Positions 20,371 through 53,720 of a stretch of 64,000 nucleotides of DNA are shown here, piece by piece. The position numbers and the translations under genes were made by a program. The DNA is taken from assembly GCF_035084215.1 (NCBI RefSeq), contig NW_027139559.1, positions 2,480,001-2,544,000 on the forward strand, given 5' to 3'. The stretch's first letter is position 1; each line of letters opens with the position of its first letter. This DNA comes from Heptranchias perlo (taxonomy: Eukaryota). The notes beneath the pieces were generated by a model. That model was not told where the DNA came from, searched no databases, and worked only from the letters and a program-made list of their open reading frames with translations.

Positions 20371-20604
20371 ATACGTCCATGAAAGTAAATCTTTTGTGAA
20401 ACGTAGTCACCAAAAATATGTGCAAAACTATATTGTTCTGAGAAACTCATTCGAAGCCGAAGCCAATCCTCTGTATACATCTACTGCTCTTGCGATGTGT
20501 CCCAACATACCCGATGTATATATCAGCTGCTCTTGCAATGTGTTTTTTTATTCGTTCATGGGATGTGGGCGTCGCTGGCAAGGCCAGCATTTATTGCACA
20601 TCCC

Positions 20605-21654
20605 ATGAAGGTTGTTTTTGTGACTGGAAGCCTGTGGCCAGTGGGGTACCACAGGGATCGGTGCTGGGTCCCTTGCTGTTTGTGGTCTACATTAATGACT
20701 TGGATATGAATGTAAAAGGTATGATCAGGAAGTTCGCTGATGATACAAAAATTGGTAGGGTGGTAAATAGCGAGGAGGATAGCCTCAGTCTGCAGGACGA
20801 TATAGATGGGTTGGTCAGATGGGCGGAACAGTGGCAAATGGAATTTAACCCGGAAAAGTGCGAGGTGATGCACTTTGGAGGGACTAACAAGGCAAGGGAA
20901 TACACAATGAATGGGAGGACCCTAGGCAAGACAGAGGGTCAGAGGGATCTTGGTGTGCAAGTTCACAGATCCCTGAAGGCGGCGCGACAGGTCGATAAGG
21001 TGGTAAAGAAGGCATATGGGATACTTGCCTTTATTAGCCGAGGCATAGAATATAAGAGCAAGGAGGTTATGATGGAGCTGTATAAAACACTGCTTAGGCC
21101 ACAGCTGGAGTACTGTGTGCAGTTCTGGTCGCCACACTACAGGAAGGATGTGATCGCTTTGGAGAGGGTGCAGAGGAGATTCACCAGGATGTTAACAGGG
21201 CTGGAGCGCTTCAGCTATGAAGAGAGACTGGGAAGATTGGGTTTGTTTTCCTTGGAGCAGAGGAGGCTGAGGGGGGACATGATTGAGGTGTACAAAATTA
21301 TGAGGGGCACAGATAGGATGGATACTAAGGAGCTTTATCCCTTCGTTGAGGGTTGTATAACAAGGGGACATAGATTCAAGGTAAAAGGCGGGAGGTTTAG
21401 AGGGGATTTGAGAAAAAACTTTTTCACCCAGAGGGTGGTTGGAGTCTGGAACTCACTGCCTGAAAGTGTTGTGGAGGCAGGAACCCTCACAACATTCAAG
21501 AAGCATTTGGATGAGCACTTGAAATGCCACAGCATACAAGGCTACGGACCAAATGCTGGAATATGGGATTAGAGTAGACAGGGCTGATGGCCGGCGCGGA
21601 CACGATGGGCCGAAGGGCCTCTATCCGTGCTGTATAACTCTATGACTCTATGAC
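20605..21654 (+). mobile_element. Young 5'-truncated CR1 LINE with uninterrupted ORF2 C-terminus
   Basis: Stop-free frame from [11 protein letters not shown] through KFADDTK and LEYCVQFWSP to the stop at 21572, followed by the tail ctctatgactctatgac. Confidence 0.95.
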
Positions 21655-22169: not shown

Positions 22170-22960
22170 AATTTCACGAAGGCAATGGCTACTCAACGGT
22201 TTAACTGCCATGTGCAGTTTTAGGCGCTCCATTAAAGAAAGAATATAAATGTCACAGACCGCGTTCCAAGTAGATTCACGAGGGGATGCCAGGAATGGAA
22301 GTTAGATCATTAAAATTGATGGGATTTTTCGAGTTGATCAGAAAAGCCGAAGAAGAGATTCATTGAGCTTTTCAGAATTATGGAGGATTTTAATTGGATG
22401 GATAGGGAAATCTATTTCCTTTGATTGGGGAGTCAATGATGAAGAGTGATCAATTTAAAATTGTAATTAAGAGAGTCAGGAGACCGGCTTTGAGAAATCG
22501 TTATAATTGTAGGGTTGTTTGAGACGCAACACGGTCAATGGTTGTGGCAAAGAACAGGAGAGTGTTAGGGGGAAACTAAATAATTATAAGAAGGAGAGAA
22601 AATAACAGGGCTACAAAAAGAGAGAGCGAAAGTGGGATTCGTTTGGGATTGATACAGGGCTATGTGGAAAGAGAGGGGCATTGAGATTAGTTTTCGATTG
22701 ATACAGGGCTTTGGGCAGATAGCGAGATAGTGGGATTAGTTTGGGATTAATACAGGGCAATGGAGTGAGAGCAGGGCAGTGGGATTAATCTTGGATTGGT
22801 ACCGTGCTACGGGGAGAGAGGGTGTCAGTGCGGGTAGTATAGGCTTGAAATAGAGTTATGGGAAGATAATGTGGCTTAATTGGATAGCTCTTTCAAAGGA
22901 AGCAGCACAAGCACGATCGGTCGAATGGCCTCATACTGTGCTCCGTCATTTTTTGCTTCT
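22170..22960 (+). mobile_element. Old CR1 3' end whose UTR grades into the satellite
   Basis: Decayed ORF2 end and the tail ttggatagctctttcaaag...gaatggcctc at about 22880-22940. Confidence 0.7.
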
Positions 22961-25900
22961 ATGGTCCTGTGATTGATACAGGGTTATGGGAAGAGTGTGG
23001 TAAGTTTCAGTTTGATACAGGGCCATGGCTTGAAAGTGGGACAGTTGGATTAGTCTTGGATTGATACACATTTACCCTCAAAGAGAAGGGCAGTGGGATT
23101 ATTTGAGTTTGATACGGGGCCATATCAAAGAATAGGGCATTGGGATTAGATTGGAATTGATAAAGGACAATGGGGAGAAAGCGGAGAGTGTGATTAGTCT
23201 GGGATTGAAGCAGGACTATGAGGAGAGAGGGGTTCAGTGAGATTAGTCTGAGATTACAGCAGGACTATGAGGAGAGAGGGGGTCAGTGGGATTAGTCTAG
23301 GATTGATTCATGACTGTGAGGAGAGAGGGCGTCAGTGGGATTAGTCTAGGATTGATTCAGGACTATCAGGAGAAAGGGGGGTCATTGTGATTAATCTGGG
23401 ATTGATTCAGGACAATGAGAGAGGGGGTCATTGGGATTAGTCTCGGATTGATTCAAGACTATAAGGAGAGAGGGGGTCAGTGGGATTAGTCTGGGATTGA
23501 TTCACGACAATGATGAGAGAGGGGGTAAGTGGGATTCGTCCAGGATTGATTCAGGACTATGAGGAGAGCGGGGGTCATTGTGATTTGTCTAGGATTGATT
23601 CAGGACTATGAGGAGAGAGGGGGTCAGTTGGATTAGTTTGGGAATGACTCAGGCCCATGTGGAGAGAGAGGGTCAGTGGGATTAGTCTGGGATTGATTCA
23701 GGACTATGGGGAGAGAGTAGTTGAATGGGAATAGTCGAGGATTGTTTCAGGACGATAAGGAGAGAGGGGGTCAGTGGGATTAGTCTGGGATGTAATCAGG
23801 ATATGGGGAGAGAGCGGTTCAGTGCGTTCAGCCTCGGATTGATTCAGGACCAAGGGGCGAGAGGTGGACACCAGGATTAGTCTAGGATTGAAGCAGGACT
23901 ATGTGGAAAGAGGTGGTCAGTGGGATTAGTCTGGGATTGATTCAAGACTATGCGAAGAGAGGGGGTTAGTGGGATTAGTCTGGGATTGATGCGGGACTAT
24001 GGGGAGAGAGGGGCTCACTGGGATTAGTCTGGGATTGACTCATGACTATGAGGAGAGAGAATCAGTGCGATTAGTCTGGGATTGATTCAAGACTGTGAGG
24101 AGAGAGGGGGTCAGTTGGATTATTCTGTGATTGATGCAGGAGTATTAGGAGAGAGGGGGTCAGTGGAATTAGTCTTGGATTGAATCAGGACTATAAAAAG
24201 AGAGGGGGTTCAGTGGGATAAGTCTGGGATTGATTTAGGATATGGGGAGAGAACGGGTCAGTGAGATCAGTCAAGGATTGATTCAGGACTATGAGGAGAG
24301 AGGGGTTCAGTGGGTTTAGTCTGGGACTGATTCAGGCCTATGAGGAGAGAGGGGGTCAGTGGGATTAATCTGGAATTGTTGCAGGACAATGAGGCCAGAG
24401 GACAGAGGGGCTCAGTGGGATTAGTCTGGGATTGGTGCAGGTCTATGAGGAGAGAGGTGGTCAGTGGCATTAGTCTGGGATCGATTCAGGACTATGAGGA
24501 GAGAGGGGGTCACTGGGATTTGTCCGGGATTGAATCAGGACTATGAGGAGAGAGGCTGACAGTGTGATAAATCTTGGATTGATTCAGGACAATGAGGAGA
24601 GAGGGGGTCAGTTGTATTTGTCTGGGATTGATTTAGGATATGAGGAGAGAGGGGGTCAGTGGGATTAGTCTCGGATTGATTAAGGACAATGGGGCGAGAG
24701 GGGGTCATTGGGTTTATTCTGGGATTGAAGAGGAGTATGTGGAAATAGGGGGTCAGTGTGATTAGTCTGGGTTTGATTCAAGAATATTAGAAGAGAGCGG
24801 GTCAGTGTGATTCTTCTGGGATTGATTCAGGTCGATGAGGAGAGAGCGGGTCAGTGGGATTAGTCTGGGATTGATTCAGGACTGTGAGGCGAGAGGGGAT
24901 CAGTGGGATTAGTCTGGGATTGATTCAGGACTATGAGGAGAGAAGTGATCAGCGCGATTATTCTGTGATTGATTCAGGACTATGAGGAGAGAGGGGATCA
25001 GTGGGATTAGTCTGGGATTGATTCAGGACTATGAGGGGAGAGGGGGTCAGTTTGATTATACTGTGTTTGCAGCAGGACAAGTGGTGAGAGGTGGTCATTG
25101 CGATTAGTTTCGGATTGATTCAGGACCATGGGGAGATAAGTGGTCAGTGGGATTAGTCTGGGATTAATTCAGGAATATGCGGAGAGAGGGGGTCAGTGGG
25201 ATTATTCTAGGATTGATTCAGGACTATGAAGATATAGGGGGTCAATGGGATTAGTTTAGGATTCATTCAGGATTAGAGGGAGAGAGGAGATCAGTGGGAT
25301 TAGTCTGGGATTGATTCAGGACTATGAGGAGAGCGGGGGTCAGTGGAATTAATCTGGGATTGATTCAGAACTATGAGGAGAGCGGGGGTCAGTGGGATTA
25401 GTCTAGGATTGAATCAGGACTATAAAGAGAGAGGGGGTTCAGTGGGATTAGTCTGGGATTGATTTAGGATATGGGGAGAGAACGGGTCAGTGAGATCAGT
25501 CAAGGATTGAATCAGGACTATGAGGAGAGAGGGGCTCACTGGGATAGTATGTGTTTGATTCAGGACTATAAGGAGAGAGAGGGTCAGTGGGATAAATCTT
25601 TGATTGTTTCAGGACTATGAGGAGAGAGGGGGTCAGTTGGATTAATCTGGGATTGATTCAGGAATATGGGGAGAGAAGGGACAGTGGGATCATTCTGGGA
25701 TTGAAGAGGAGTATGTGGAAACAGGGGGTCAGTGTGATTAGTCTGGGTTTGATTCAAGAATATTAGAAGAGAGCGGGTCAGTGTGATTCGTCTTGGATTG
25801 ATTCAGGTCTATGAGGAGAGAGGTGGTCAGTGGGATTAGTCTGGGATTGATTCAGGACTATGAGGAGAGAGGGGATCAGTGGGATTAGTCTGGGATTGAT

Positions 25901-27335
25901 TCAGGACTATGAGGGGAGAGGGCATCAGTGGGATTAGACTGGGGTTGATTCAGGACTATGAGGAGAGAGGTGGTCAGTTTGATTATTCTGTTTTTGAAGC
26001 AGGACTACGAGGTGAGAGGTGGTCATTGGGACTGGTTTCGGATTGATTGAGGACTATGGGGAGAGAAGTGGTCAGTGGGATTAGTCTGGGATTGATGCAG
26101 GACTATGAGGAGAGAGGGGCTCACTGGGACAGTCTGTGATTGATTCAGGGCCATGGGGACAGAAAGTTTCAGTGGGTTTAGTCTCGGATTGAATCAGGAC
26201 TATGAAGAGATAGGGGGTCAATTGGATTAGTCTCGATTTCATTCAGGATTAGGGGAGAGAGGAGATCAGTGGGATTAATCTAGGATTGATTCAGGACTAT
26301 GAGGAGAGCGGGGTCAGTGGAATTAGTCTGGGATTGATTCAGAAGTATGAGGAAAGGGGGGGTCAGTGAGATGAGTCTGGGATTGATTCAGGACTATGAG
26401 GAGAGAGTGGGTCAGTGTGGTTATCTAGCATTGATTCAGGACGATGTGAAGAGAGGTGGTTCGTGGGATTAGTCTAGGATTGATTCAGGACTATGAGGAT
26501 AGAGGGGGTCAGTGGGATTAATCTGGGATTGATGCAGGACTTTTCGGAGAGAGGGTATCAGTGGGATTAGTCTGGGATTGATGCAGGACTATGAGGAGAG
26601 AGGAGCTCAGTGGGACAGTCTGTGATTGATGCAGGACTTTTGGGAGAGAGGGTGTCAGTGGGATTAGTCTGTGATTGATGCAGGACTATGAGGAGAGAGG
26701 GGCTCACTGGGACAGTCTGTGATTGATGCACGACTATGAGGAGAGAGGGGGGCAGTGGGATTAGTCTGGGATTGATTCAGGACGATGAGGAGAGTGGCCG
26801 TCATTCGGATTAGTCTGTGATTGATTCACGACGATGAGGAGAGAGTGGGTCAGTGGGATTAGTCTGGGATTGTTGCAGGACTATGGGCAGACAGTGGGGC
26901 ATTGGGATTAGTTTGGACTTGTTGCAGGACTATGAGGAGAGAGCGGGGCAGTTGGATTAATTTGGGTTTGATTCAGGACTATGGGGAGAGGGCGACGCAG
27001 TGGGATTAGTTTGGGATGGATGCAGGACTATGGGGTGACAGTGGGCGAATGGGATGAGTTTGGGATTGATTCAGGACTGGGGGGAGACAGCGGGCAAGTG
27101 TGTTTACTTTGGGATTGATGCAGGACTGCGGGGAGACAGCGGGCCAGTGGGGTTAGTTTGGGATTGATGCAGGAATATGGGGAGACAGTGGGCCCGTGGG
27201 ATTATTTTGGGATTGATGCAGGACTATGGGGAGACAGCGGGCAAGTGTGGCGAGTTTGGGATTGATGCAGGAATATGGGGAGACAGTGGACCAGTGGGAT
27301 TAGTTTCAGATTGTTGCAGGAATATGGGGAGAGAG
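22620..27335. repeat. ~49-bp G-rich satellite, about 95 copies
   Basis: Consensus cagtgggattagtctgggattgattcaggactatgaggagagagggggt, with units starting at 24852, 24901 and 24950. Confidence 0.97.
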
Positions 27336-27819
27336 GGGGCCGACGCAGTTTCTTTGTGTATGTCGGTAATCGAAGCAAAATTTCTGTTACCGGTCAATGA
27401 TACCGATTAAGTGAAAAAGAATTGAAAGGCAAGTCGCTTTTTAAAAAATTGAATGTATAAATGCTTTTCACTGTAGAGAATAACAGAAATAACATCTCTG
27501 GGCAGCGCCGTGTGTCGGTACACGTCGACAATAATTAATGGTTTCTCAGTAAGTTTCCTGTTTTGTTGGACTCTGTGTCGCCATGGAAATCGTTCACCAA
27601 CGTTATCATCAGCATTTCGTTTTCCTGAGCTGCTTCCGCTGCTTGATCAAGAAGTCTCAGTAACAAAAAAGGGAGCGATTAATCTTTCTCATCAAATCGC
27701 TGACATTTTACTGCCACAATGTGTACGATAACAGTGGGTCAGAAAAAAATCATCAAATCGCTTCTCAGAATTGTGGACGATGTCAATTTAACTACATATT
27801 TTTACAAAAAAGATTTGTA

Positions 27820-30504: not shown

Positions 30505-30703
30505 GATGTGGAGATGCCGGTGATGGACTGGGGTGGACAAATGTAAGGAATCTTACAACACCAGGTTATAGTCCAACAAATTTATTTTAAAATCACAAGC
30601 TTTCGGAGATTATCCCCTTCATCTGACGAAGGGGATAATCTCCGAAAGCTTGTGATTTTAAAATAAATTTGTTGGACTATAACCTGGTGTTGTAAGATTC
30701 CTT
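30505..30703. mobile_element. Short Penelope-type inverted pseudo-LTR insertion with perfect 76-bp arms and a 12-bp TSD
   Basis: Arms 30545-30620 and 30628-30703 are exact reverse complements around a 7-nt loop. The sequence tcatttaattaa is duplicated at 30493-30504 and 30703-30714. Confidence 0.85.
30619..30655 (+). ncRNA. Minimal type-I hammerhead ribozyme motif
   Basis: TCAT-CTGACGA-A-GGGGA(TAA)TCTCC-GAAA-GC-TT-GTGA: stem I, the CUGANGA box, stem II, the GAAA box, a palindromic AGCT stem III and a UH site. Confidence 0.7.
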
Positions 30704-31049
30704 CATTTAATTAAAGTTACCTTACCATAATTTAAAATCTTAGTAACTGTTACGTTTCTCCGTTTCAATCCTAACATTGAATTCGATCATATTATGACCA
30801 CTGACAGAAAATGTTCACTTACTGTTGGATTTTCAAGTCTGTCTGGCGCTTTATTCATTATTAATCTAGTCTGACCTGGCCTATTGTTGGTGCGATAATA
30901 TTTGGCTATAGAAAGTTATCTTGAATGCACTCAAGAAATTCACTTCCTGTCTGACTTGATCTACTCGGCTCTTCCCAATCTAAAAGAAAATGAAAGTCTC
31001 CCAGTAAAACATCTCTGCTTTTGTTACAAGCCTCTCTAGTCGCTGAATT

Positions 31050-36387: not shown

Positions 36388-37549
36388 GACTCATTATCGT
36401 TTTATTTCTTAAATGCTCCTAACAACGCTTGCTGCGTTCCTTTAAGTTGATCACATATTTTTTCTCCAACCAAACCTTTTGAATTCTGTTCTTTTCATCA
36501 CTCGCATTTTGTTCCATTTTGTTACCCAGTAACATTGATAACGTATCCCCTTTTTAACATGTTATTAGCTCAGACCTCTCTGTTTATTCACGCATCTCTT
36601 GGTTTGCAAAACTCAATTGTTTCCTATTGGGAGAATGTTTAAGTTGTACCTCACTCATGTCTTATTGAACCTTTACCAATCTGTGTTCACATTTATCTCC
36701 TGAAAATGCCACCCCAGAGTTTATAACCATTTATTTAATCTTATTTTGTCACAACCTCCCTGATTATCCCTGGAATCTCTGTCTGTGATGTGACTCATTC
36801 AGCCTTTACCCTGTTCTTTATCAATCTGGTATTTAGCCGGCCACACAGCTGGTCCCGTTCAATTTGCTTTCATTCCAGCCGATTAAATGGGGCCCGTTCC
36901 ACTATCAAGCGGGAAACACACCGGCGGAGATTGGCTGGTTAAAGTATCCTGTAACACCCAATGATCCCATCATTCTTTAAAGAAAGGGGGTTTTGAAAAT
37001 AATGATGCTTAACAGGAAATGACCCGCTTGATAGTGGAACTGGCCCCATTTAATCGGCTGGAATGAAAGCAAATTGAACGGGTCCAGCTGTGGGTCCGGC
37101 TAAATACCAGATGGATAAAGAACAGGTTAAAGGCTGAATGGTTCACATCACTGACAGAGATTCCAGGGATAATCAGGGAGGTTGTGACAAAATAAGATTA
37201 AATAAATGGTTATAAACTCTGCGGTGGCATTTTCAGGAGATAAATTTGCACACAGATTGGTAAAGGTTCGATAAGACATAAGTGAGGTACAACTTAAACA
37301 TTCTCCCAATAGGAAACAATTGGGTTTTGCAAACCAAGAGATCCATGAATAAACAGAGAGGTCTGAGCTAATAACATGTTAAAAAGGGGATACGTTATCA
37401 ATGTTACTGGGTGACAAAATGGAACAAAATGCGAGTTATGAAAAGAACAGAATTCAAAAGGTTTGGTTGGAGACAAAAATATGTGATCAACTTAAAGGAA
37501 CGCAGCAAGCGTTGTTAGGAGCATTTAAGAAATAAAACGATAATGAGTC
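36388..37549. repeat. Large inverted repeat: arms 36388-36913 and 37023-37549 with a 109-bp spacer
   Basis: gactcattatcgttttatttc...actatcaagcggg is mirrored by cccgcttgatagt...gaaataaaacgataatgagtc, with scattered mismatches. Confidence 0.95.
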
Positions 37550-38179: not shown

Positions 38180-39111
38180 CTAATGCTGGGAATTCTGCCG
38201 CTCTTGTCCTCGTTTAACTAATTTAAATATTAATTTGAGAGGATATTTCACCCCATTCTTCAGCTCCTCTCTGAATTTAGTCTGGGTCACTCCATAAATA
38301 CACGTGTTTGTGCAGCAGCTCAAAAGCAGGAGCATGTAGCTGGTTTGATCTGCGATAAATGTCGGGTCATTGATACCTGTGGAATAATAACGGTTTGTAA
38401 TTTGAACTGATAGGAAAAGTAAAACATACGTCATCCATAGCAGTATGAAATTGGCGGATATCGCAAACAGTAAGATGATGGATTTTCTTCGGTTCTCCAT
38501 CTCCGGATCATTGTGATTCGCATCACTTTTGCTGCCTCTAAGCCTCCTGCGGGCTCTACTTGCCGCCAAAATGTTTCCTACAGTCAGAGAATTGAGCAGC
38601 AATATCAGGAATATTGGAAGCAGTGGAGTGAAACAGCGGTGAATCCATGTAAATGCTACCCATGCAGCTGAAGTATAACAGTCTGGTTTTACACGATAGC
38701 CCCAAGGTACGTTCTCCAATATAATGGACGGTTCAAATGCAAAGTACCAGGGAATGTTTTTTAAACAGAAGAGCGGACACAACGTTCCTATAATCACGGC
38801 TGCAGTTTTCTCGGTGCAATATTTAGTCCTCAGCTTCTGGCAACAAATGGTTATAAAACGATCAAAAGTGAAAGCGACTGTTAACCAGACAGAAATGTCT
38901 GAGACAGCATGGTTAATGGTAATTTGGAAAGAGCACACAGGGGTGAGGAACAGGAAGTTAGTCGGGAAATATAACTCCTTGATCCGAAACAGTACCACGT
39001 CATTGATAATGACCAATAGATCCGCCGCTGCCATGGCCACCAGGTAGCGAGTGACACATTTCGAGAGACCGCACTTTCCTCGGGACAGGATTACAATCGT
39101 CATCACGTTAG
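38180..39111 (-). CDS. GPR139/GPR142-like orphan class A GPCR, exon 2 (TM1 end to C-terminus)
   Basis: Acceptor cccttttacag|CT AAC. The open frame has YLVAMAAADLL (TM2), C...SVWLTVAFTFDRF (TM3), CT...A (TM4), P.LP..LI..LN (TM5), F..LW (TM6) and SCCTNTCIY..TQTKFREEL (TM7/H8). Confidence 0.93.
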
Positions 39112-40309: not shown

Positions 40310-43300
40310 TTATGAAGAAATTGTCTCCATGGTCTGGAATGAAGTAATTGAGGAAATTGCAGCTGCGTTCGTAAATAGTCTTCAAAATCTCATTATTCGG
40401 GAATTGTCCCGTTGGATTGGAAAATTACAATGGACTCTCCAATAATTGAGCAGGGTGGGTGATAGAAACCATATAACGATAGACCTGTCGCTCCAAAGTC
40501 TGTTGTGGGAAAATTACTACAATCTGTTATTGGGGAGTGAGTGACTGAGCATTTGGACAAATTTGAGCCACGTGCTAGTGAAGAGAAACACAGGGTAATT
40601 CGGCACCAACGCGTGGTGAAGACTCTGGTTTCGGGACTCAAGTTTTCGTTTCCTCAAACAGTGGCACTCCAACGTCATAGGTAGGACTAGGAAAGAGGTT
40701 CTGCTGAGGGAGTTTGAGCAGCTAGAGACTGAATTAAAAAGCAGAACTACAAAGGTGATAATCTCCGGATTATTACATGAGCCACGAGCAAATTAGCACA
40801 GAGTGAATCAGATCAGAGAGATGAATGCGTGGCCCAAAGTTTGGTGTGGGAGAAGTGGGTTCAGGTTCATGGAGCACTGGCACTAATAATGGGGAAAGAG
40901 GAAGCTGTTTCGTTGGGACGGGCTTCACCTGAACCATGCTGGGACCAATGTTCGGGCAAACTGAATAACTAGGGCGGTAGAGAAGAGTTTAAACTAAATA
41001 GAGTGGGGGAGGGCTCATAATACTATTCAAGGAGAGTCAACATGGTTTTATGAAGGGGAAATCGTGTCTGACAAATTTATTAGCGTTCTTCGAGGAAGTA
41101 ACGGGCAGGGTGGATAAAGGGCAAGCAATGGATGCAGTGTATTTGGATTTCCAAAATGCATTCAATAAGGTGCCATATAAAAGATTACTGCACAAGATAA
41201 GAGCTCGTGGTGTTGTAGGCAATATATTGGCATGGATAGAAGATTGGCTAACGAACAGAAAACAAAGAGTCGGGAGGAAAGGTTCATTTTGCAAATGTCA
41301 ATCTATAACTAGTGGGGTGCCGCAGGGCTCAGTGCTGGGGCCTCAGCTATTTGCAAAATATATCAATGACTTGGATGAAGGAACAGAGTGTCTTGTTGCC
41401 AAATTTGCTGATGATACAACGATGGGTGGAAAAGCAAGTTGCGATGCGAACACAAAGTGTCTGCAAAGGGATATTGACAGGTTAAGCGAATGGGCAAAAT
41501 TTGGCAGATGGAATAAAACGTGGAAAAGGTGAAGTCATTAACTTTGGGAGAAAAAGTAAAAAAGCAAAATATTATTTCAAAGGAGCAATACTACAAAATG
41601 CTGCGGTGCAGAGGGATCTGGATGTCCTCGTAAATTAAACACAAAAAATCAACATGCACGTGCAGCAGGTAGTCAGGAAGGCAAACGGAATATTGGCCTT
41701 TATTTCGAGGTGGATGGAGTATAAGAGCAGGGAGATCATGCTACACCTGTACAGAGTGCTGGTGAGATGACACCTGGAGCACTGCCTACAGTTCTGGTGC
41801 CCTTATTCAAGGAAGGACACACTTTGGACCAAAAAAGGATAGAACAGGGTACTTTAAAAATGGTAAAAAGTTAAAATCTGTGGATGTCCAAAGGGACTTA
41901 GGGGTTCAGGTACATAGATCATTGAAGTGTCGTGAACAGGTGCAGTAAATAATCATGAAGCCAAATGGAATGTTGGCCTTCATATCCAGAGGACTAGAGT
42001 ACAAGAGGGCAGAAGTTATGAGGCAGCTATACAAAACCCTGGTTAGACTGCACCTGGGGTACTGTGAGCAGTTCTGGGCACCGCACCTTTGGAAGGACAT
42101 ATTGGCCTTGGAGGGAGTGCAGCGTAGGTATACGAGAATGATACCCGGACTTCAAGGGTTAAGTTACGAGGAGAGATTACACAAATTGGGGTTGTATTCT
42201 CTAGAGTTTAGAAGGTTAAGGGATGATCTGATTGAAGTTAATAAGATATTAAGGGGAACAGATAGGGTGGATAGAGAGAAACTATTTCCACTGGTTGGGG
42301 ATTTTAGGAGCATGGGGCATAGTCTAAAAATTAGAGCCAGACCTTTCAGGAGCGAGATTGGTAAACATTTCTACACACAAAGGGTTGTAGAAGTTTGGAA
42401 CTCTATTCCGCAAACGGCAATTGATACTAGCTCAATTGCTAAACTTGGATCTGAGATAGATAGCTTTTTGGCAACCAAAGGTATTAAGGGATATGGGCTA
42501 TATGGAGTTGGATCACAGATCAGCCATCATCTTATCAAATTGCGGAGCAGGCACGAACGGCTGATTGGCCTACTCCTGTTCCTATGTTCCTATGTTCCCA
42601 TACTTACATTGGAGGCAGTTCAGAGAAGGTTCACTGGGTTGATTCGGGAGATGGAAGGCTTTACTTCTGAGGAAAGATTAAACAGGTTGGGGCTAAACTC
42701 ATTGGAGTTTAGAAGAATGAGAGGAGATCTTATTGAAACATACAAGATTCTGAGGGGACTCGATAGGGTAGATGCTGAGAGGATGTTACCCCTCATCTAG
42801 GGGGGGCATAGTCTCAGAATAAGGGGTCGCCCGTTTAAAACGGAAATGAGGAGGGATCTCTTCTCCCAGAGGGTCATGAATCTTTGAATGTTTTTACCCC
42901 AAAAAGCTGTGGAGGCTGAGTCATTGAATCCATTCAAGGCTGAGTCAGACACATTTTTGATCAGCAAGGGAGTAGGATATGGAGAAAAGGCGGGAAAGTG
43001 GAGTTGAGATAAAAATCAGATCAGCCATGATCTGATTGAATGGCGGAGCAGAGTCGTGGGGCCGAATGACCTGCTTCTGCTCCTATCTCTTATGGTCTTA
43101 CGGTCTTGTGGTCTTTTGCAATAGGGGGAGCCTTTACAAACCGGATGGCCTCTATCTGCACAACGGTGGTGGGAGGTGGTTGGGGTTAGAGATGTTGGCA
43201 GGCAAGATAGCTAGAATGATGGGGCAGGGTTTAAACTGGATGTGGGGGTGTTTGTGGTAAGTGCAAGAGAACACCAGTACCGATTGGAGCAACTTTTAAG

Positions 43301-43660
43301 TATACCAGTGAAAACACAAATCAAAGCTTAATGAGGCTAATTCCAATAGAGGGGGGTCAACAAAGTAAAACTGTTGATAAAGTAAATCGGAAAGCTAAAA
43401 ATCAGAAAGCTTAAAAAGCTGCGTTTGCATTAATGGAAGAAGTCCGATAAATAAGATGGGTGATCTGGAAGGTATTGCAGCGGTTCATAGATTGGAAATT
43501 AGTTTCATCACAGAGAAATGGTGGAATGATTCCAATCAATGGGATACCTATCTGGTCGGGTATAAATTGTTTAGACTAGACCGTGTCAGGAGAGAGGGCG
43601 ATGCTGTTGCAGTGTCTGTAAACTCCAGTATTGAGGCACAAGTCAGAGAGGATATATAAA
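40310..43660 (+). mobile_element. Nested CR1 fragments, including ORF1 esterase pieces (about 40570-41015 and 43110-43250) and a CR1 inserted into a CR1 (41825-42598)
   Basis: DGLHLN (ORF1 esterase), [23 protein letters not shown] and KFADD motifs. The insert is flanked by cacactt (41818) and catactt (42599). Confidence 0.88.
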
Positions 43661-44289
43661 AGGAAAATGCTCCTCTACATTTCCGAGTTGCTCAGCATTT
43701 AGAATATCTCCCGATTTATCTTTCTTAGGTCCAAAATGGATGACCTCACATTTGCCCACATTAAACTCCACCTTCCATAAATTTGCAGCGCGTTTCCCGC
43801 CGAATATCCTTCTCTGCTCAACCGACAAGTTCTGTGAGCGGAGCGTCGATAGATTAGCGCCACCCGGTGGGAGGGTATCGAACTGATCGCCAAGCCAGTT
43901 GAATCCCAGAAAGTACGTGCCGTGGACAAGGTGAAACCCGAACTCAGGCCAGCCAAGATGGCTTTCAAACTTCCACTATTACGGAGCTGCAGTCGTCGAA
44001 CTTTCAGTTGCTTACCTCACTGTGTAACGTCGTGTAATTATATTGAAACTGGTAAGAATATTGATCAATATGAGGCGGTCGTAATGGATGGTCAGAAAGG
44101 TCGGTGGCATATTCAATGGAATGGATTGTCCGAGGTCTCAGTGCGAGCACCCCATACCAATCCATGTGTACACAAATGGCCACCTGAATTGCCTGAGATG
44201 CAAAGATTGATTGATGTAGATGAAAGATTCAGTGCACCCTAACTGAGTCCTCTCCCCTTAACAACTTGAGCAGTCTTTAATGATTTACG

Positions 44290-47200: not shown

Positions 47201-47795
47201 TCCTTTCATTTAGCAGAATTACATTGTAATACAACACTCGTAAGTTACCCTCAATCAGTGTTAATGTGGGTATTCACTGTCTGTCAGCAGATACTTACTT
47301 CCGTTTCCCAGCATACCTTCCACTAAACTGAAATTGAATTCAAAACCTTTCACTTTGTATTAAACCACAGTTACTATCTGTTATCGTTAAAGTCGAGGGA
47401 AATAATTAACCAGAGAAAGTCAGCTGGAGAACATTAGCCAGAGGTCCCTGTCGCTGCCTTAGATTAACTGGAGCAACTTCATAATCTGACAACATCACAC
47501 TGGGTGAATACTGCTCACATTCTCATTTAAAACCGCATCAACTTGAAAAGTTCAATGTATAAAGTAACAGGATATTAGTTGGAGATTAAAAACACATTAT
47601 AACATCAATTAACATATCACACAAGAAAGATGGAGGAAAGGGAGGTCGTGATATTCTCTGAATTTCTGACACTCACCCAAAATCAGGAGAAGAATCACTT
47701 CAGGACAAATACAGCAAATTACTAGACCCGCAAGAGCAGCAGTGACACAGTGAGACCCGGATTTATACGAACAGGAACCGGTTTCTATGATTTAC

Positions 47796-47895
47796 CAGGA
47801 ACTCGAAGGGCTTCAAGATTAACACAGGAAGTAATTTGTACCTGTAAAGGTTTCAGTTACTCTGGAAATGGACATACGGTGAATGTAACTCTCAT
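47796..47895 (-). pseudogene. Degenerate paralogous copy of GPCR exon 1 inside intron 1
   Basis: Exactly 100 nt and colinear with exon 1: ATG AGA GTT ACA TTC ... GTT CCT G|gtaaat encodes MRVTFTVCPFPE*LKPLQVQITSCVNLEALRVP, with an in-frame TAA at codon 13. Confidence 0.85.
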
Positions 47896-47934
47896 TTCAG
47901 AAATTATGGCTCATGGTCCTAGGTACGGGATATG

Positions 47935-48640
47935 AGTACATAGGAACAGGAGGAGGTCATTCAGCCCTTCGAGCCTGTTCCTCCATTGAATTAGATCATG
48001 GCGGATTTGTAACCGAACTCCATTTACCCACCTTCGCTCCATATCCACTGATATTCTAACCCAACAATGATCGATCGATCTTAGTGCTCATTTCTAGATT
48101 TCCAGAATCCTTGCTGTGAAAAGTGTTACCTTATTTCACTCAAAAATGGCCGAGCTCTAATATTAAATTTAATCTCTTCTTCAAGACCCCACCATAGGAA
48201 ATTGTTTCTCTGCATCTACCTGATCGAATCACTTTACCATTTTAAATATCGAGATCAGATCATCCTTCAAACATCTAAACTCACGGGATTTACAACTACG
48301 CTTATGCCACCCGGCTTCACAATTGACCGCTTTAAGCCCCGCTATTATTTTGGTGAATCTGTGCTGCATCCCTTCCAAGGCCATTATATCCTTCCTGAGA
48401 TTCTGTGCCCAAATCTAAGACGAGTGCTCCTGATGGTGTCTGACCAAGGCTCTGTACAACTGAAGTATCACTTCCACACTTTTCAATGAAACCCCCTGGC
48501 GATAAAAGACAACATTCCATTAACATCGACCCCTACTCTCAGTCTCCTATCTCACAACCAATTACCGACTCATGTCACAATTTAACTCCAATTCTAGACG
48601 TTCGCATTTTGCTAATGTTCTCTTGAGCCAAAACTATCAA
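47935..48640 (-). mobile_element. CR1 3' fragment
   Basis: Tail cataggaacaggaggagg and decayed ORF2 end. Confidence 0.8.
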
Positions 48641-48699
48641 AAACACGGAAATAATTGACATTGTAGCATAACTTGAGAATATGGAGTTAGGGGTAAATA

Positions 48700-49290
48700 A
48701 CATTTCACACGGTACTGAAGATATTCTCAAATACAATTACACGTTCAACGATGGTCACAGATTGGAGATTTTGTTGGACATTACAAGTACATTATGATCC
48801 CAATGAACATATCACACAAGGAAGGTGGAGGGAAAGGCAGATTTGATAGTCAATGAAATTCTGACATTGAGAGAGAAACAGTAACACAAATGCTTCAGAA
48901 CAAACAACAATTTATCGGACACATAACAAGAACATTGATTCATTTAAACCCTGATTCATAAAGTAAGTAATTGTTCTGAATCAAACATCAAACACCACCT
49001 GGAGAACTGGAACACGGCGAACGGATATACAATCAATTAAACTTTAATGTGTCTGAGAATTGATGGTGACTCTGGGTGCGGGACATCCAGCAACAACTGA
49101 CCATGTGAGTTGATACATTCAGGGAAAGCCTCATTAATACAGGCGCGAATCTTCCAGTGGGATTATTAGGCTGCATTGACACTGAGATTGGTGACAGTCA
49201 GTGGGACAGTCGGGCAACTCACTTCACTCTGTTCTTACTGAGTAACATCTTTAAATAGACTTTGCAGAGTTTTATAATGAAACAGCTGAA
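48700..49290 (-). pseudogene. Second degenerate promoter/exon-1/intron cassette of the GPCR (exon truncated)
   Basis: Colinear matches to 50225-50830: acacggcgaa, tgagaa.tgatggtga, tccagtgggat, gcattgaca, cttcact and aatgaaacagc. The segment 48763-48920 also matches 47571-47730. Confidence 0.75.
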
Positions 49291-49968
49291 ATATTGATGG
49301 TTTATTCCGATCACAGGTGGATGGAGGAAAAGTGATGAAGGGATATGGGAACAGGGTGGGTAAATGTGATCAGAACAATCTTCTAACTCTAAGGATTTGA
49401 GTGATATTAAAGGTGAATTTGTATCGAGCAGCGTTTTGACCGGGCGGACAGACTTGCTAAGAGTGCAGCAGGTGTATCAACCTGCACGTGAGTGATCCAA
49501 CCGATAAAAGTGTCCGGTTAATATAAAGGGGCCATAACCCGGCATCTAATCGATGCTATGGGTAAAATACAGGTGGTGGAGGCTAAAACGGGTTTCTCAA
49601 ATCGGGTCAAACCCAGGACAGTTTCACGGAGCGCCGCTCCGCGGTTTCAATCGCTCTCATACTGCATTGGATTCCCAATCTCACCTGTATCGTTGCAGAA
49701 AGGGGTGTGACAGAAACCAGCTGCCTCCCACCGGCAGAGGGCAGCAATATGCCTGCCCGTTGGTTGAAGAGGTGGCTGAGAACAGGCTGAGAACCGTTCA
49801 TGGGAGAAGATCAGGGGGAAAATCAGTGTTCGACGTGGAGCACAAACCCATCCTGGAAATGGATTGTGATCACCAGGAATAATATCAACACTTTGGTGGG
49901 AAAAGACCGAAAACAGTCGGAAAGTTCTGATTAATGGGATTGAACAAATACCAATCCTGATTGTTCGG

Positions 49969-50184
49969 ATATGTCCAGGTTGAGAACGGATATTAACGAG
50001 TGTCAGATCAGCGGAAGGAGGGGAGGAAAGGGAGTCTGTTATATGTCCAGGTATTGAACGGATATTAACGAGTGTTAGATCAGGGGAAGGAGGAGATGAG
50101 AGGGAATCTGTTATACGTCCAGTTATTGAACGTATATTACCGAGTGTTAGATCAGGGGATGGAGGAGAGGAGAGGGAGTCTTTT
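49969..50184. repeat. 72-bp tandem repeat, 3 copies
   Basis: ata(t/c)gtccag starts at 49969, 50041 and 50113. Confidence 0.92.
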
Positions 50185-50491
50185 GGGACCACGGGAAATA
50201 ACTTTAAATCTAAATATATCCACTGTATCATATTCTGCACGGATTCTCAGTTAAAAATACATCAATTTGAAAGTCATTTGATGATGAAAATAAGCTACAG
50301 CTTTTGATGGAGAATAACAATATCATTATAATGTCAATAGAATGATCAGTCAAGGAACACGATAGAGCGGGATTTCTGCCTTTGATTTAACTTGGAAATA
50401 ACACAGTGAAATAAGGACAGTTACCGAGATAAGAGTCGTAATACGGTTAAATCCTGAATCATACATTTAGGAAATGAATATAATAACTTAC

Positions 50492-50591
50492 CGGGGACTC
50501 CAATGGCTGCTATAATCGGATAGTAAATCATTACTGTCTGTACAATTGGCGGTAACACGGTAAATGGATACACGGCGAATGGAACTCTCAT
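50492..50591 (-). CDS. GPR139-like GPCR exon 1 (MRVPFAVYPFTVLPPIVQTVMIYYPIIAAIGVP)
   Basis: ATG at 50591 and donor CCC G|gtaagt. The 100-nt phase-1 exon joins exon 2 in frame (G|CT = Ala), giving YYP..A.IGVPAN and 343 aa across an 11.4-kb intron. Confidence 0.88.
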
Positions 50592-50678
50592 TCTGTTTGA
50601 GAAGTGATGGTGAATCTTGACGCTGGACACACGGCTCCAACTGACTTTGTGAGATGAGAGATTAAGAGAAAATCATTA

Positions 50679-50684
50679 TTTATA
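50679..50684 (-). promoter_or_regulatory. Candidate TATA box of the GPCR gene
   Basis: TATAAA on the minus strand, about 90 bp upstream of the exon 1 ATG. Confidence 0.5.
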
Positions 50685-51064
50685 ATCGAGGGAAACCTCC
50701 AGTGGGATCAGGGAACGGCAGCAGCATTGACATTACTTCCAGTCATTTGGACAGCCCGCAATTCCCTTCACTGTAATGTGTGTGCTGCACTAATTAATTC
50801 CAAAGGATATTGCAAGTGTTTTCAAATGAAACAGCCCAACGATTGGTGTAATATTATGTTCATATTTCTATCTAACAATATACTGTAAGCCGGACTCTGA
50901 CTGCCTCACTGCAGCACGTTAAACAGAAGGAGCTTCAGTTTCCCTTCTGTTTTGTGACACGGTTCACTCCTGTCGATGCACCAACTCAATACCAAGAATT
51001 CTCAAACATGCTTCAAGGGTTTGCATTGCTCCCTGCGATCAAAACACGTGGTATCATATTGTCA

Positions 51065-53720
51065 TATTATGTTTCAGCACTGGAGGAGGCCATTCGGCCC
51101 ATTGTTCCTTTGCCGGTTCTTTGAAAAAGCTATCCATTTCGTCCCGTTCCCCTATTCTTTCCCCGTACCTTTCGATTTGTTTTCATTTCAAGTATTCATA
51201 CAATTCCCCTTTTGAAAGTTACTATTGAACCTGCTTCCACCACCCTTTCAAGCACTGCATTTAAGACCATTAAAACTCGCTGTGTAAAAAAATGTTTCCT
51301 CATGACCGTTCATGATTTTGAACACCTCTATGATATCTTCCCTACACCTTTTTTGAAAAACCCCGGCTTCTCCAATCTCTACACATAACTGAAATGCAGC
51401 ATCCCTAGTATCTATTCAATCTCTTCTGAGCCCTCTCGAAAGCATTGACATCTTTCCTAAAGTGTGGTGCCCAGAATTGAAAACAATATTCCAGTTGCGG
51501 CATTACGGGAGTTTTCTAATGGTTTGGTATAACTTCCTTAATTTTGAACTTGATGCTTCTAGTAATAAAGCTCAGGATCCCCTATGTCTTTTAATAGCCT
51601 TCTCAACTTGTCCTGCCACTTTCAAATATTTGTGTATGTGCACCTTTAGCTCTCTCTGTTCCTGCACCTCTTTGAAATTGTACCATTTAGTTTTTATTAC
51701 CTCTCCACATTCTTCCAACCCAAATATATCCACTTGCACTTCTCTGTGTTAAATTTAATCTGCCATGTGTCTGCCCATTTCACCAGTCTGTCTATGTCCT
51801 CCTGAAGTCTGCTGCTATCCTCCACATTGTTTGCTACATTTCCCTGTCATCTGCAAACTTTGAAATTATACCATCCATACCGATGTCCAGGTCATTAACA
51901 TATAGCAAAAAGAACTGTGGTCCTAATACTGACCCCTGGGGAACACCACTGTATACTTCACACCAGTCTGAAAAACAACCGTTCACCACTACTTTCTGCT
52001 TGCTGTCTCTTAGCCAATTTTGTATTCACGCTGCAATTGTCCCATTAATCCCACGGGCTTTAATTTTGGTAAAAGGTATATTAAGTGTTACTTTATCAAA
52101 TGCCCTTTGAAAGTCCATTTCCACAATATCAACTGCACCACCCTCGTCAACCCTCTCCACTACTTCATGAAATAACTTAATCAAGTTAGTCAAACACGAT
52201 TTTCCTTCAACAAATCCGTGCTGACTTTATCTTATTAAACTTTTCCAAGTGATAATTACGTTTGTCCCAGATTATTGTCCCTAAATGTTGCCCCATCGCC
52301 GACGTTAGGCTGACTGACCTGTAATTACCTTCTTTTCCCCCTTGGTGAACAGACGTGTGACAGATGCAACGTTTTCCTTTCGTTCCTCAGCCATGCTATC
52401 TGCCTCCACAAGAACATCTCCTTTTATTGTCCCTGACCACTCCCACCCTTCCTTTGACTACTCTTTTACTATTTATACAATTATAAGAGACTTTTGTCTT
52501 CCCTTTTATGTGAGCCACTAATCTATTCTCATATTCTCTTTACCCCTCTTATTCCCATTTTTAGATCTCCTCTGTACTTTCTGTATTCAGCCTAGTTCTC
52601 AACTGTTTTATGAACCGAACATTTGTCATAAGCCTTCTTTTTCTGTTTCATTTTAGTCTCAGTATCTTTAGTCATGCTAGGATCTCTCGCTTTCCATGCC
52701 CTTCCTTTCTACCTCTCAGTGATGTGTCTACTCTGTACCGGAAACCAACTCCTCCTTGACCTTTCCCATAACTATTGTAAACCTAATGATATTATGATCA
52801 GTGTTCGCCAAATTCTGCCCCACTGAAACATGCTCCACCTGCCCAATTTCATTGCCCAGAAACAGACCCAGCATTGTTTCCTTTCTCGGTGGGCAAGAAA
52901 CACATTGTCCCATAAAGTTCTCTTGTACACATTTCATGAACTCCTTCCCCACTTTGCCCTTGAAACTCTTTAATATCCCATTCTATATTGGGATAATTGA
53001 ATCCCCCATTATCACCACTCTATAGTTCTTGCAACTTTCTGTAATTTGCCCACAATTTTGCTCCTCAATCTCCTTCCCACTATTTGGTGGCCTACAGTAT
53101 ACATCCAGTTGCGTAATAGATTCTCTGTTGTATCTTAATTTGAAACAAATAGATTCTTTCTTGGACCTCTCCACTACATCATCCCTTTCCAGTGCTATAA
53201 TAGTATATTCGATCAATACTGCCCCTCTTTTCTTCCCTTCCCTATCTTTCCTGAATGCCATGTGGCGAGGAATATTAAGCACGCAATCCTCCCCTTCTTT
53301 GAGCAAGGTTTCTGTTATTACCACTAGATCATTGAACCATTTGGCGACTTGAGTCTGCAGCTCACCAACCTGGTTTGCCACGTTACGTGCATTTAGGCAT
53401 ATGCACTCCAAACTCGTCTTAGACTGCTTTGGATTTGCCCCTGTCTGATCCCTCCTATTTCTGAACTCTCTACTCTAGTGTTTTTTGACCCTCCCAGTCC
53501 TCTGTGTACTTTGTTTCTCCTCTCTATTGTTTCCTTCTGGTGCTTATCCCGCTGCCAATTTAATTTAAACGCTCCCCCGCTGCACTAGTTAGCCTCCCCG
53601 CGAGGACATTGGTCCCAGCTCTATTGAGGTGCAACCCGTCCATTTTGAACAGATCCCTCCTGCCCCAGAACTGATCCCAATGCCCCAAGAATCTGAAGCC
53701 CTCCCTCTTGCACCATTTCT
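51065..53720 (-). mobile_element. Long, internally deleted CR1 (ORF1 end, APE endonuclease, RT, tail)
   Basis: ORF 52983-53411 reads CLNARNV..ITET..RKDREG..YCRPPNS..VIMGD. RT motifs lie downstream and DGLHLN lies upstream. Confidence 0.9.

Follow-up and report, generated by a model that had tools for sequence, protein, structure and literature searches.

Does a row of first-exon blocks upstream of a single seven-transmembrane (7TM) exon represent a working system for varying the N-terminus of a receptor, or are the extra blocks dead duplicates? The question is raised by a 64,000-nucleotide stretch of the Heptranchias perlo genome (the window; NCBI RefSeq assembly GCF_035084215.1, contig NW_027139559.1, positions 2,480,001 to 2,544,000 of the forward strand), in which a first-pass annotation had described two diverged copies of a promoter, exon 1 and intron-start block inside the intron of a GPR139-like gene, and had likened the layout to the variable first exons of UGT1 and the clustered protocadherins. 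The features concerned, in the order in which the gene is read, are as follows.

50592–50862, minus strand: cassette A upstream block, a putative promoter/5′ UTR, its function suggested by likeness to B and by motif position
50492–50591, minus strand: intact coding exon of cassette A (33 codons plus 1 nt), with a phase-1 GT donor
50200–50491, minus strand: cassette A intron start, homologous to the corresponding parts of B and C
49969–50181, no strand assigned: minisatellite of 72 bp in 3 copies, in the A–B spacer
48654–49313, minus strand: cassette B, decayed, upstream block kept; exon, start and donor damaged
47941–48515, minus strand: 3′ end of a LINE retrotransposon, oriented like the gene, where the C upstream block should lie
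47796–47895, minus strand: cassette C pseudo-exon, with an ATG, 100 nt, a TAA at 47859–47857 (codon 13) and a GT donor
47463–47795, minus strand: cassette C intron start, homologous to A and B
38180–39111, minus strand: 7TM exon 2, single and intact, 309 codons plus stop

The gene itself encodes a GPR139-like G-protein-coupled receptor (GPCR) of class A on the minus strand in two coding exons, both intact. Exon A (50591–50492; 100 nt) encodes the N-terminus and the first half of TM1, retains 17 of 17 conserved family residues (columns with a conservation of 90% or more in a set of 30 distinct family exons), scores 112 bits against the family profile, ends in a donor with 8 of 9 consensus matches, and shows 94% identity to the best H. 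perlo exon. Joined to exon 2 at a junction within TM1, it yields 343 codons in frame with no internal stop, in agreement with the description of cassette A as intact. Exon 2 matches Pfam 7tm_1 (E 6e-15; 55.8 bits, above the curated cut-off of 30.5) and is 88–92% identical to H. perlo proteins. The only PDB match of its product is human GPR139 (E 1.8e-8, residues 1–282; PDB 7VUG, 9M42), and at 37 bits this match is distant, so the window receptor is probably a GPR139-like relative and not a GPR139 orthologue.

Upstream of exon A, the block carries a TATA-like element, TATAAATA at 50684, which is altered in B, and a pyrimidine tract with an AG near 50645–50641 that is a possible acceptor. In the interval 50645–50592, 5′ of the exon A ATG, the frame is open, and models from Heptranchias, Pristiophorus and Heterodontus conserve this stretch. 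Among annotated isoforms of a relative in Narcine bancroftii, the sequence upstream of the ATG-bearing exon is not the same in X1 and X2, and X4 (P0175) lacks this coding exon and joins a different short N-terminus to exon 2; the ATG exon may therefore not be the first exon, and further exons may exist 5′ of exon A, which makes the label ‘promoter’ uncertain even for cassette A.

Self-comparison of the array region recovered three blocks, all on the minus strand: A (about 50862–50200), B (about 49313–48654) and C (about 47909–47463), with B and C inside the gene’s intron. Local alignment scores were 218 for A–B, 166 for A–C and 164 for B–C, compared to means of 30–33 and maxima of 48–51 in 200 shuffles per pair, and the best blastn E-values were 1e-31, 1e-14 and 8e-26, respectively. 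A profile built from A, B and C found no fourth cassette copy within the window; neither was a second exon 2 or an exon-2 remnant found there, the exon-2 region matching itself alone and tblastn agreeing. Since the alignments stand far above the shuffles, with no fourth copy and no second exon 2, the earlier description of the array, including its single exon 2, is confirmed, and the locus does show tandem homologous first-exon blocks 5′ of a common downstream exon (three blocks, one exon 2).

Cassette B retains an upstream block that is 67% identical to A over 264 aligned columns, followed by a truncated exon in which about 40 nt are missing and 60 of the 100 exon columns align. To this extent the first-pass annotation was accurate, but it understated the damage: the start site reads ATT instead of ATG at 49048, a stop follows at codon 4, and the donor position near 48987 has 4 of 9 consensus matches. 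The upstream block has also gained three upstream ATGs, and a cryptic GT at 48999 shows 6 of 9 donor matches.

Cassette C does have the ATG, the 100-nt length, the phase-1 GT donor (same phase as A, 7 of 9 consensus positions) and the TAA at codon 13 that had been ascribed to it; a single stop, however, understates its condition, as 13 of the 17 conserved residues are lost and 4 kept, and its family-profile score is −19 bits, against a leave-one-out minimum of 72 and 112 for A. The exons of C and A are 67% identical in nucleotide sequence (about 33% divergence), and their 33 differences fall 12/14/7 over the three codon positions, with no third-position excess. This split is compatible with neutral change (P 0.095), and a third-position share of 60%, an assumed value, is rejected (P 6e-6). 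C has decayed without sign of coding constraint. At the protein level it is 33% identical to A, compared to 61–64% for ray relatives, which makes it likely that C died long ago.

The place where the promoter of C should lie is taken, as had been noted, by a transposon: the 3′ end of a LINE (about 48515–47941), presumably of CR1 type, terminates 45 nt above the C ATG. It matches the C-terminal part of a reverse-transcriptase-bearing ORF at 20442–21569 (E 5e-20; RVT_1) and has up to 14 self-hits within the window. About 52% of the whole stretch consists of repeats, mostly LINE fragments, that occur again inside it.

Neither B nor C is able to supply an in-frame N-terminus. The locus comprises one intact first coding exon (A) and one 7TM exon, and we consider it very probable that B and C are non-functional relics, which had been the fallback reading of the annotation and is borne out by the lesions in both copies, by the 4 of 17 residues left in C and by its lack of third-position bias. 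Two features run counter to this: C has kept its ATG, exact length and 7-of-9 donor despite its divergence, and the upstream block of B is still 67% identical to A. Both could mean lingering constraint, and they bear on a further reading, in which B or C, though dead as a coding exon, would still act as an alternative promoter or regulatory element, giving either a non-coding RNA or, by reinitiation at the codon-3 Met of exon 2, a receptor without the first half of TM1. The cryptic GT in B would also suit such a role, as would isoform X4 of Narcine, which demonstrates that skipping of coding exon 1 is annotated in a relative. However, the identity of the B upstream block is no higher than that between the A and C exons (67%) or in the best B–C intron match (69%), and thus gives no sign of additional constraint; in addition, the TATA-like element of B is altered and three upstream ATGs precede its exon, and the upstream block of C has been replaced by the LINE. 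We therefore regard a regulatory role for B or C as unlikely.

How might dead copies have come to lie in this intron? We propose that a block of ~0.7 kb, comprising the upstream region, the exon and ~290 nt of intron, would have been tandemly copied twice, long ago; that the most upstream copy, A, would have been kept in use as the start, reading frame, donor or upstream block of B and C was lost; and that the whole unit, with its relics and transposon landmarks, would then likely have been multiplied by segmental duplication. Birth and death of whole genes, by duplication of this kind, appears to be the way in which the receptor family diversifies. For the relics themselves, we put the chance that they arose by local duplication of the 5′ block at about even. 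A competing account, differing from our preferred explanation in origin only, holds that B and C, equally dead, are the stranded 5′ ends of former complete paralogous genes whose 7TM exons were deleted. Fused or partial models are frequent in the family, an example being P0151, in which an exon-1 tail and a partial exon 2 precede a full copy; relative to A, an insertion of ~19 nt is common to B and C; and homology breaks off at nearly one and the same point of the intron whichever two blocks are compared, possibly the limit of a formerly constrained stretch. Against these points, no exon-2 remnant lies between the cassettes, 0 of 15 spacer/intron pairs exceed their own shuffle maximum, and the spacers are short, at ~0.9 and 0.75 kb. 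Deleted paralogues are a possible, though less likely, source of the relics.

The proposal of local copying followed by multiplication of the whole unit is consistent with traces of related units. Transposon pieces in H. perlo gene models match the window at 52675–52577, 51959–51846, 44232–44188 and 43867–43694, so the flanks and the intron were likely duplicated along with the gene. Similarly, contigs from DNA run X4 align at 87–88% identity to 47620–47997 (C and the LINE junction), 47276–47686 (C intron) and 49398–49854 (A–B spacer), and another is identical to the window over 301 nt; each is shorter than 420 nt, and they do not physically link A, B, C and exon 2. As the 87–88% contigs cover both the C–LINE junction and the A–B spacer, the relics were likely carried along in duplicated gene units, and these contigs would represent paralogous units with the same relics. 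In repeat-free bins, the depth of this run, which is not to be read as copy number, was 2,637 at A, 2,371 and 2,099 in the A–B spacer, 2,434 at B, and 2,467 and 2,483 in the intron next to exon 2, with lower values at C (1,183) and at 43228–43671 (1,432). Three further runs, guessed to be RNA, had a depth of 0–1.5 over the repeat-free bins of A, B and C and next to no cassette words, which has no bearing on expression; exon junctions, that of A included, were absent among the 15 joint rows listed of 1,103, in a table crowded with repeats, which has no bearing on splicing.

We then compared the locus with the family at large. Of 5,214 candidates retrieved with exon 2, 2,770 proteins reached E 1e-30 or better, and the best 120 of these all carry shark or ray names and are nearly all labelled probable or putative GPR139, with H. 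perlo at the top; the nearest relatives, proteins of sharks and rays annotated as GPR139-like, share its short first coding exon. In titles and the beginnings of abstracts, a coverage that leaves out most subscription papers, no literature describing the expansion, function or gene structure of elasmobranch GPR139-like receptors was found, and a metagenome scan with exon 2 gave 109 pattern matches, 0 of them confirmed. Cluster look-ups for 10 of the 120 listed matches identified 20 closely related H. perlo proteins; 15 appear to lie on one 12.2-Mb contig, under separate accessions, and none of these is named an isoform. Among these 15 paralogues (P0001–P0004, P0121–P0129, P0131, P0132), P0124 is the single model to include a true exon 1, and most models start with a retroelement-like peptide. 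We weighed whether such N-termini, found in 12 of the 20 H. perlo models, are genuine alternative first exons and decided against it: they are probably artefacts of gene prediction, because the TM1 half is absent and related models match LINE pieces of the window. Alternatively, they could reflect loss of exon 1 in many H. perlo copies, or many 7TM exons per first exon.

The family also bears on whether each cassette might be spliced to the constant 7TM exon, giving receptors with different N-termini and TM1 segments. The annotation had proposed counting exon 1 against exon 2 in relatives, several first exons per exon 2 being taken as support for such a system. From 183 proteins fetched, two of them unrelated short entries, a strict 33-residue exon-1 pattern selected 43 models from 6 species, which contain 36 distinct exon-2 and 29 distinct exon-1 peptides; these are protein models and not genomic counts, and the balance runs opposite to the one proposed. 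Distance matrices of the two exons are correlated in these 43 models (rho 0.82, reached in 0 of 2,000 permutations), with shared species history contributing. Correlated divergence and more exon 2s than exon 1s would be as predicted for whole-gene duplication. The B–C region matched none of the 183 proteins at E 0.01, compared to 95 matches for A. Most of these gene models are predicted, with a single model for each locus; variable exons would rarely be visible in them even where present, and the test is a weak one.

Individual models point in different directions. In Pristiophorus japonicus, P0140, 1 of the 43 models, has two intact exon-1 copies that differ by one residue and carry the same upstream piece, followed by one 7TM part. 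As a candidate for a recent duplication of the 5′ block it ranks first, and because of it some small chance remains that a true variable-exon locus exists elsewhere. P0150 and P0158 share the sole exon-2 peptide (1 of 36) that pairs with two exon-1 peptides, but a single residue of 365, in exon 1, separates the two proteins, and recent duplicates or alleles fit them as well as variable exons do. In Narcine, isoform sets X1–X3 have an identical exon 2 and one common coding exon 1. Exon-1-only searches for further two-copy proteins returned 1 and 13 known proteins and 0 new two-copy cases, a weak search because clusters are shown by one representative.

Taken together, these observations leave little room for a working variable-first-exon system at this locus. 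It would account for the same-strand tandem array 5′ of one exon 2 and for the same phase-1 donor in A and C; the double exon 1 of P0140 offers a parallel, and UGT1 clusters, too, hold pseudogene or relic variable exons (PMC1885805). Yet just 1 of the 3 cassettes is open, distinct exon 2s outnumber exon 1s, a segment like B or C occurs in 0 of 183 proteins, and the Narcine sets X1–X3 use a single common coding exon 1. We give this interpretation very little credence, and the likeness to UGT1 and the protocadherins was not upheld. A broader version, in which the locus is a fossil variable-first-exon GPCR cluster and some living shark paralogues, such as the P0140 locus, still splice alternative N-terminus/TM1 exons, seems to us only slightly less improbable.

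Elsewhere in the window, a near-perfect palindrome (36388–37549; 1.16 kb, 91% self-complementary) lies ~630 bp downstream of the GPCR stop codon, and a smaller one (30539–30708) is 97% self-complementary; both are possibly fold-back or MITE-like elements. The region 22600–27340 contains a 49-bp satellite with ~86 copies in 23141–27339 and a strong G skew. Judged by eye, no other non-transposon protein-coding gene was evident among window ORFs of at least 120 residues.

With B and C read as relics, the locus illustrates clearly how decayed copies of an exon travel with a receptor family as it expands; it matters little as it stands, beyond a warning that gene predictors mis-assign first exons in GPR139-like receptors. 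Were a relative to splice several intact first exons to one 7TM exon, it would be an unusual variation of the N-terminus and TM1 of a GPCR, and a fossil cluster, if real, would amount to UGT1-style diversification of a class A GPCR. The very large shark and ray GPR139-like group may be worth more attention than the relic exons.

The closest comparison is with the elasmobranch proteins labelled ‘probable G-protein coupled receptor 139’ in RefSeq/UniRef (H. perlo, P. japonicus, Heterodontus francisci, N. bancroftii), which share the 33-residue exon A and the TM1 junction; the window copy differs in carrying two decayed extra 5′ blocks in its intron, of which counterparts in relatives may be glimpsed in the short DNA contigs. 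Human GPR139 shares the class A 7TM likeness at a distance. Extra GPR139/GPR142-related subtypes are described in bony fish and coelacanth in PMC6504862, the main text of which does not contain ‘shark’, and the main text of PMC11979771 has no word beginning with ‘GPR’, though its supplement might list these genes.

The UGT1, GCNT2 and clustered protocadherin loci resemble this one in having tandem homologous first-exon blocks 5′ of a common downstream exon. According to PMC1885805, these clusters contain two to a dozen functional variable exons, which in UGT1 and GCNT2 have their own promoters and are spliced to conserved constant exons, with pseudogene or relic exons among them. Here, in contrast, one exon is open: B lacks the ATG and is interrupted at codon 4, whereas the frame of C is stopped at codon 13, with 4 of 17 conserved residues left. 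The constant exon does not stay single as first exons expand; the shark family multiplies the 7TM exon itself (36 versus 29 peptides in the 43 protein models; 15 paralogues on one contig). As for a promoter per variable exon, judged from sequence, A has TATAAATA, B an altered copy, and C a LINE tail in its place. With two defining features failing, the locus should not be filed as a member of the variable-first-exon clusters.

Pseudo-exons and gene relics left by partial duplication in birth-and-death families typically show stops, deletions, loss of start or donor, transposon insertion and unbiased substitutions. Nothing found in B or C sets them apart from such relics, and the feature, which is real, is most likely ordinary: a pair of ancient pseudo-exons in a birth-and-death receptor family.
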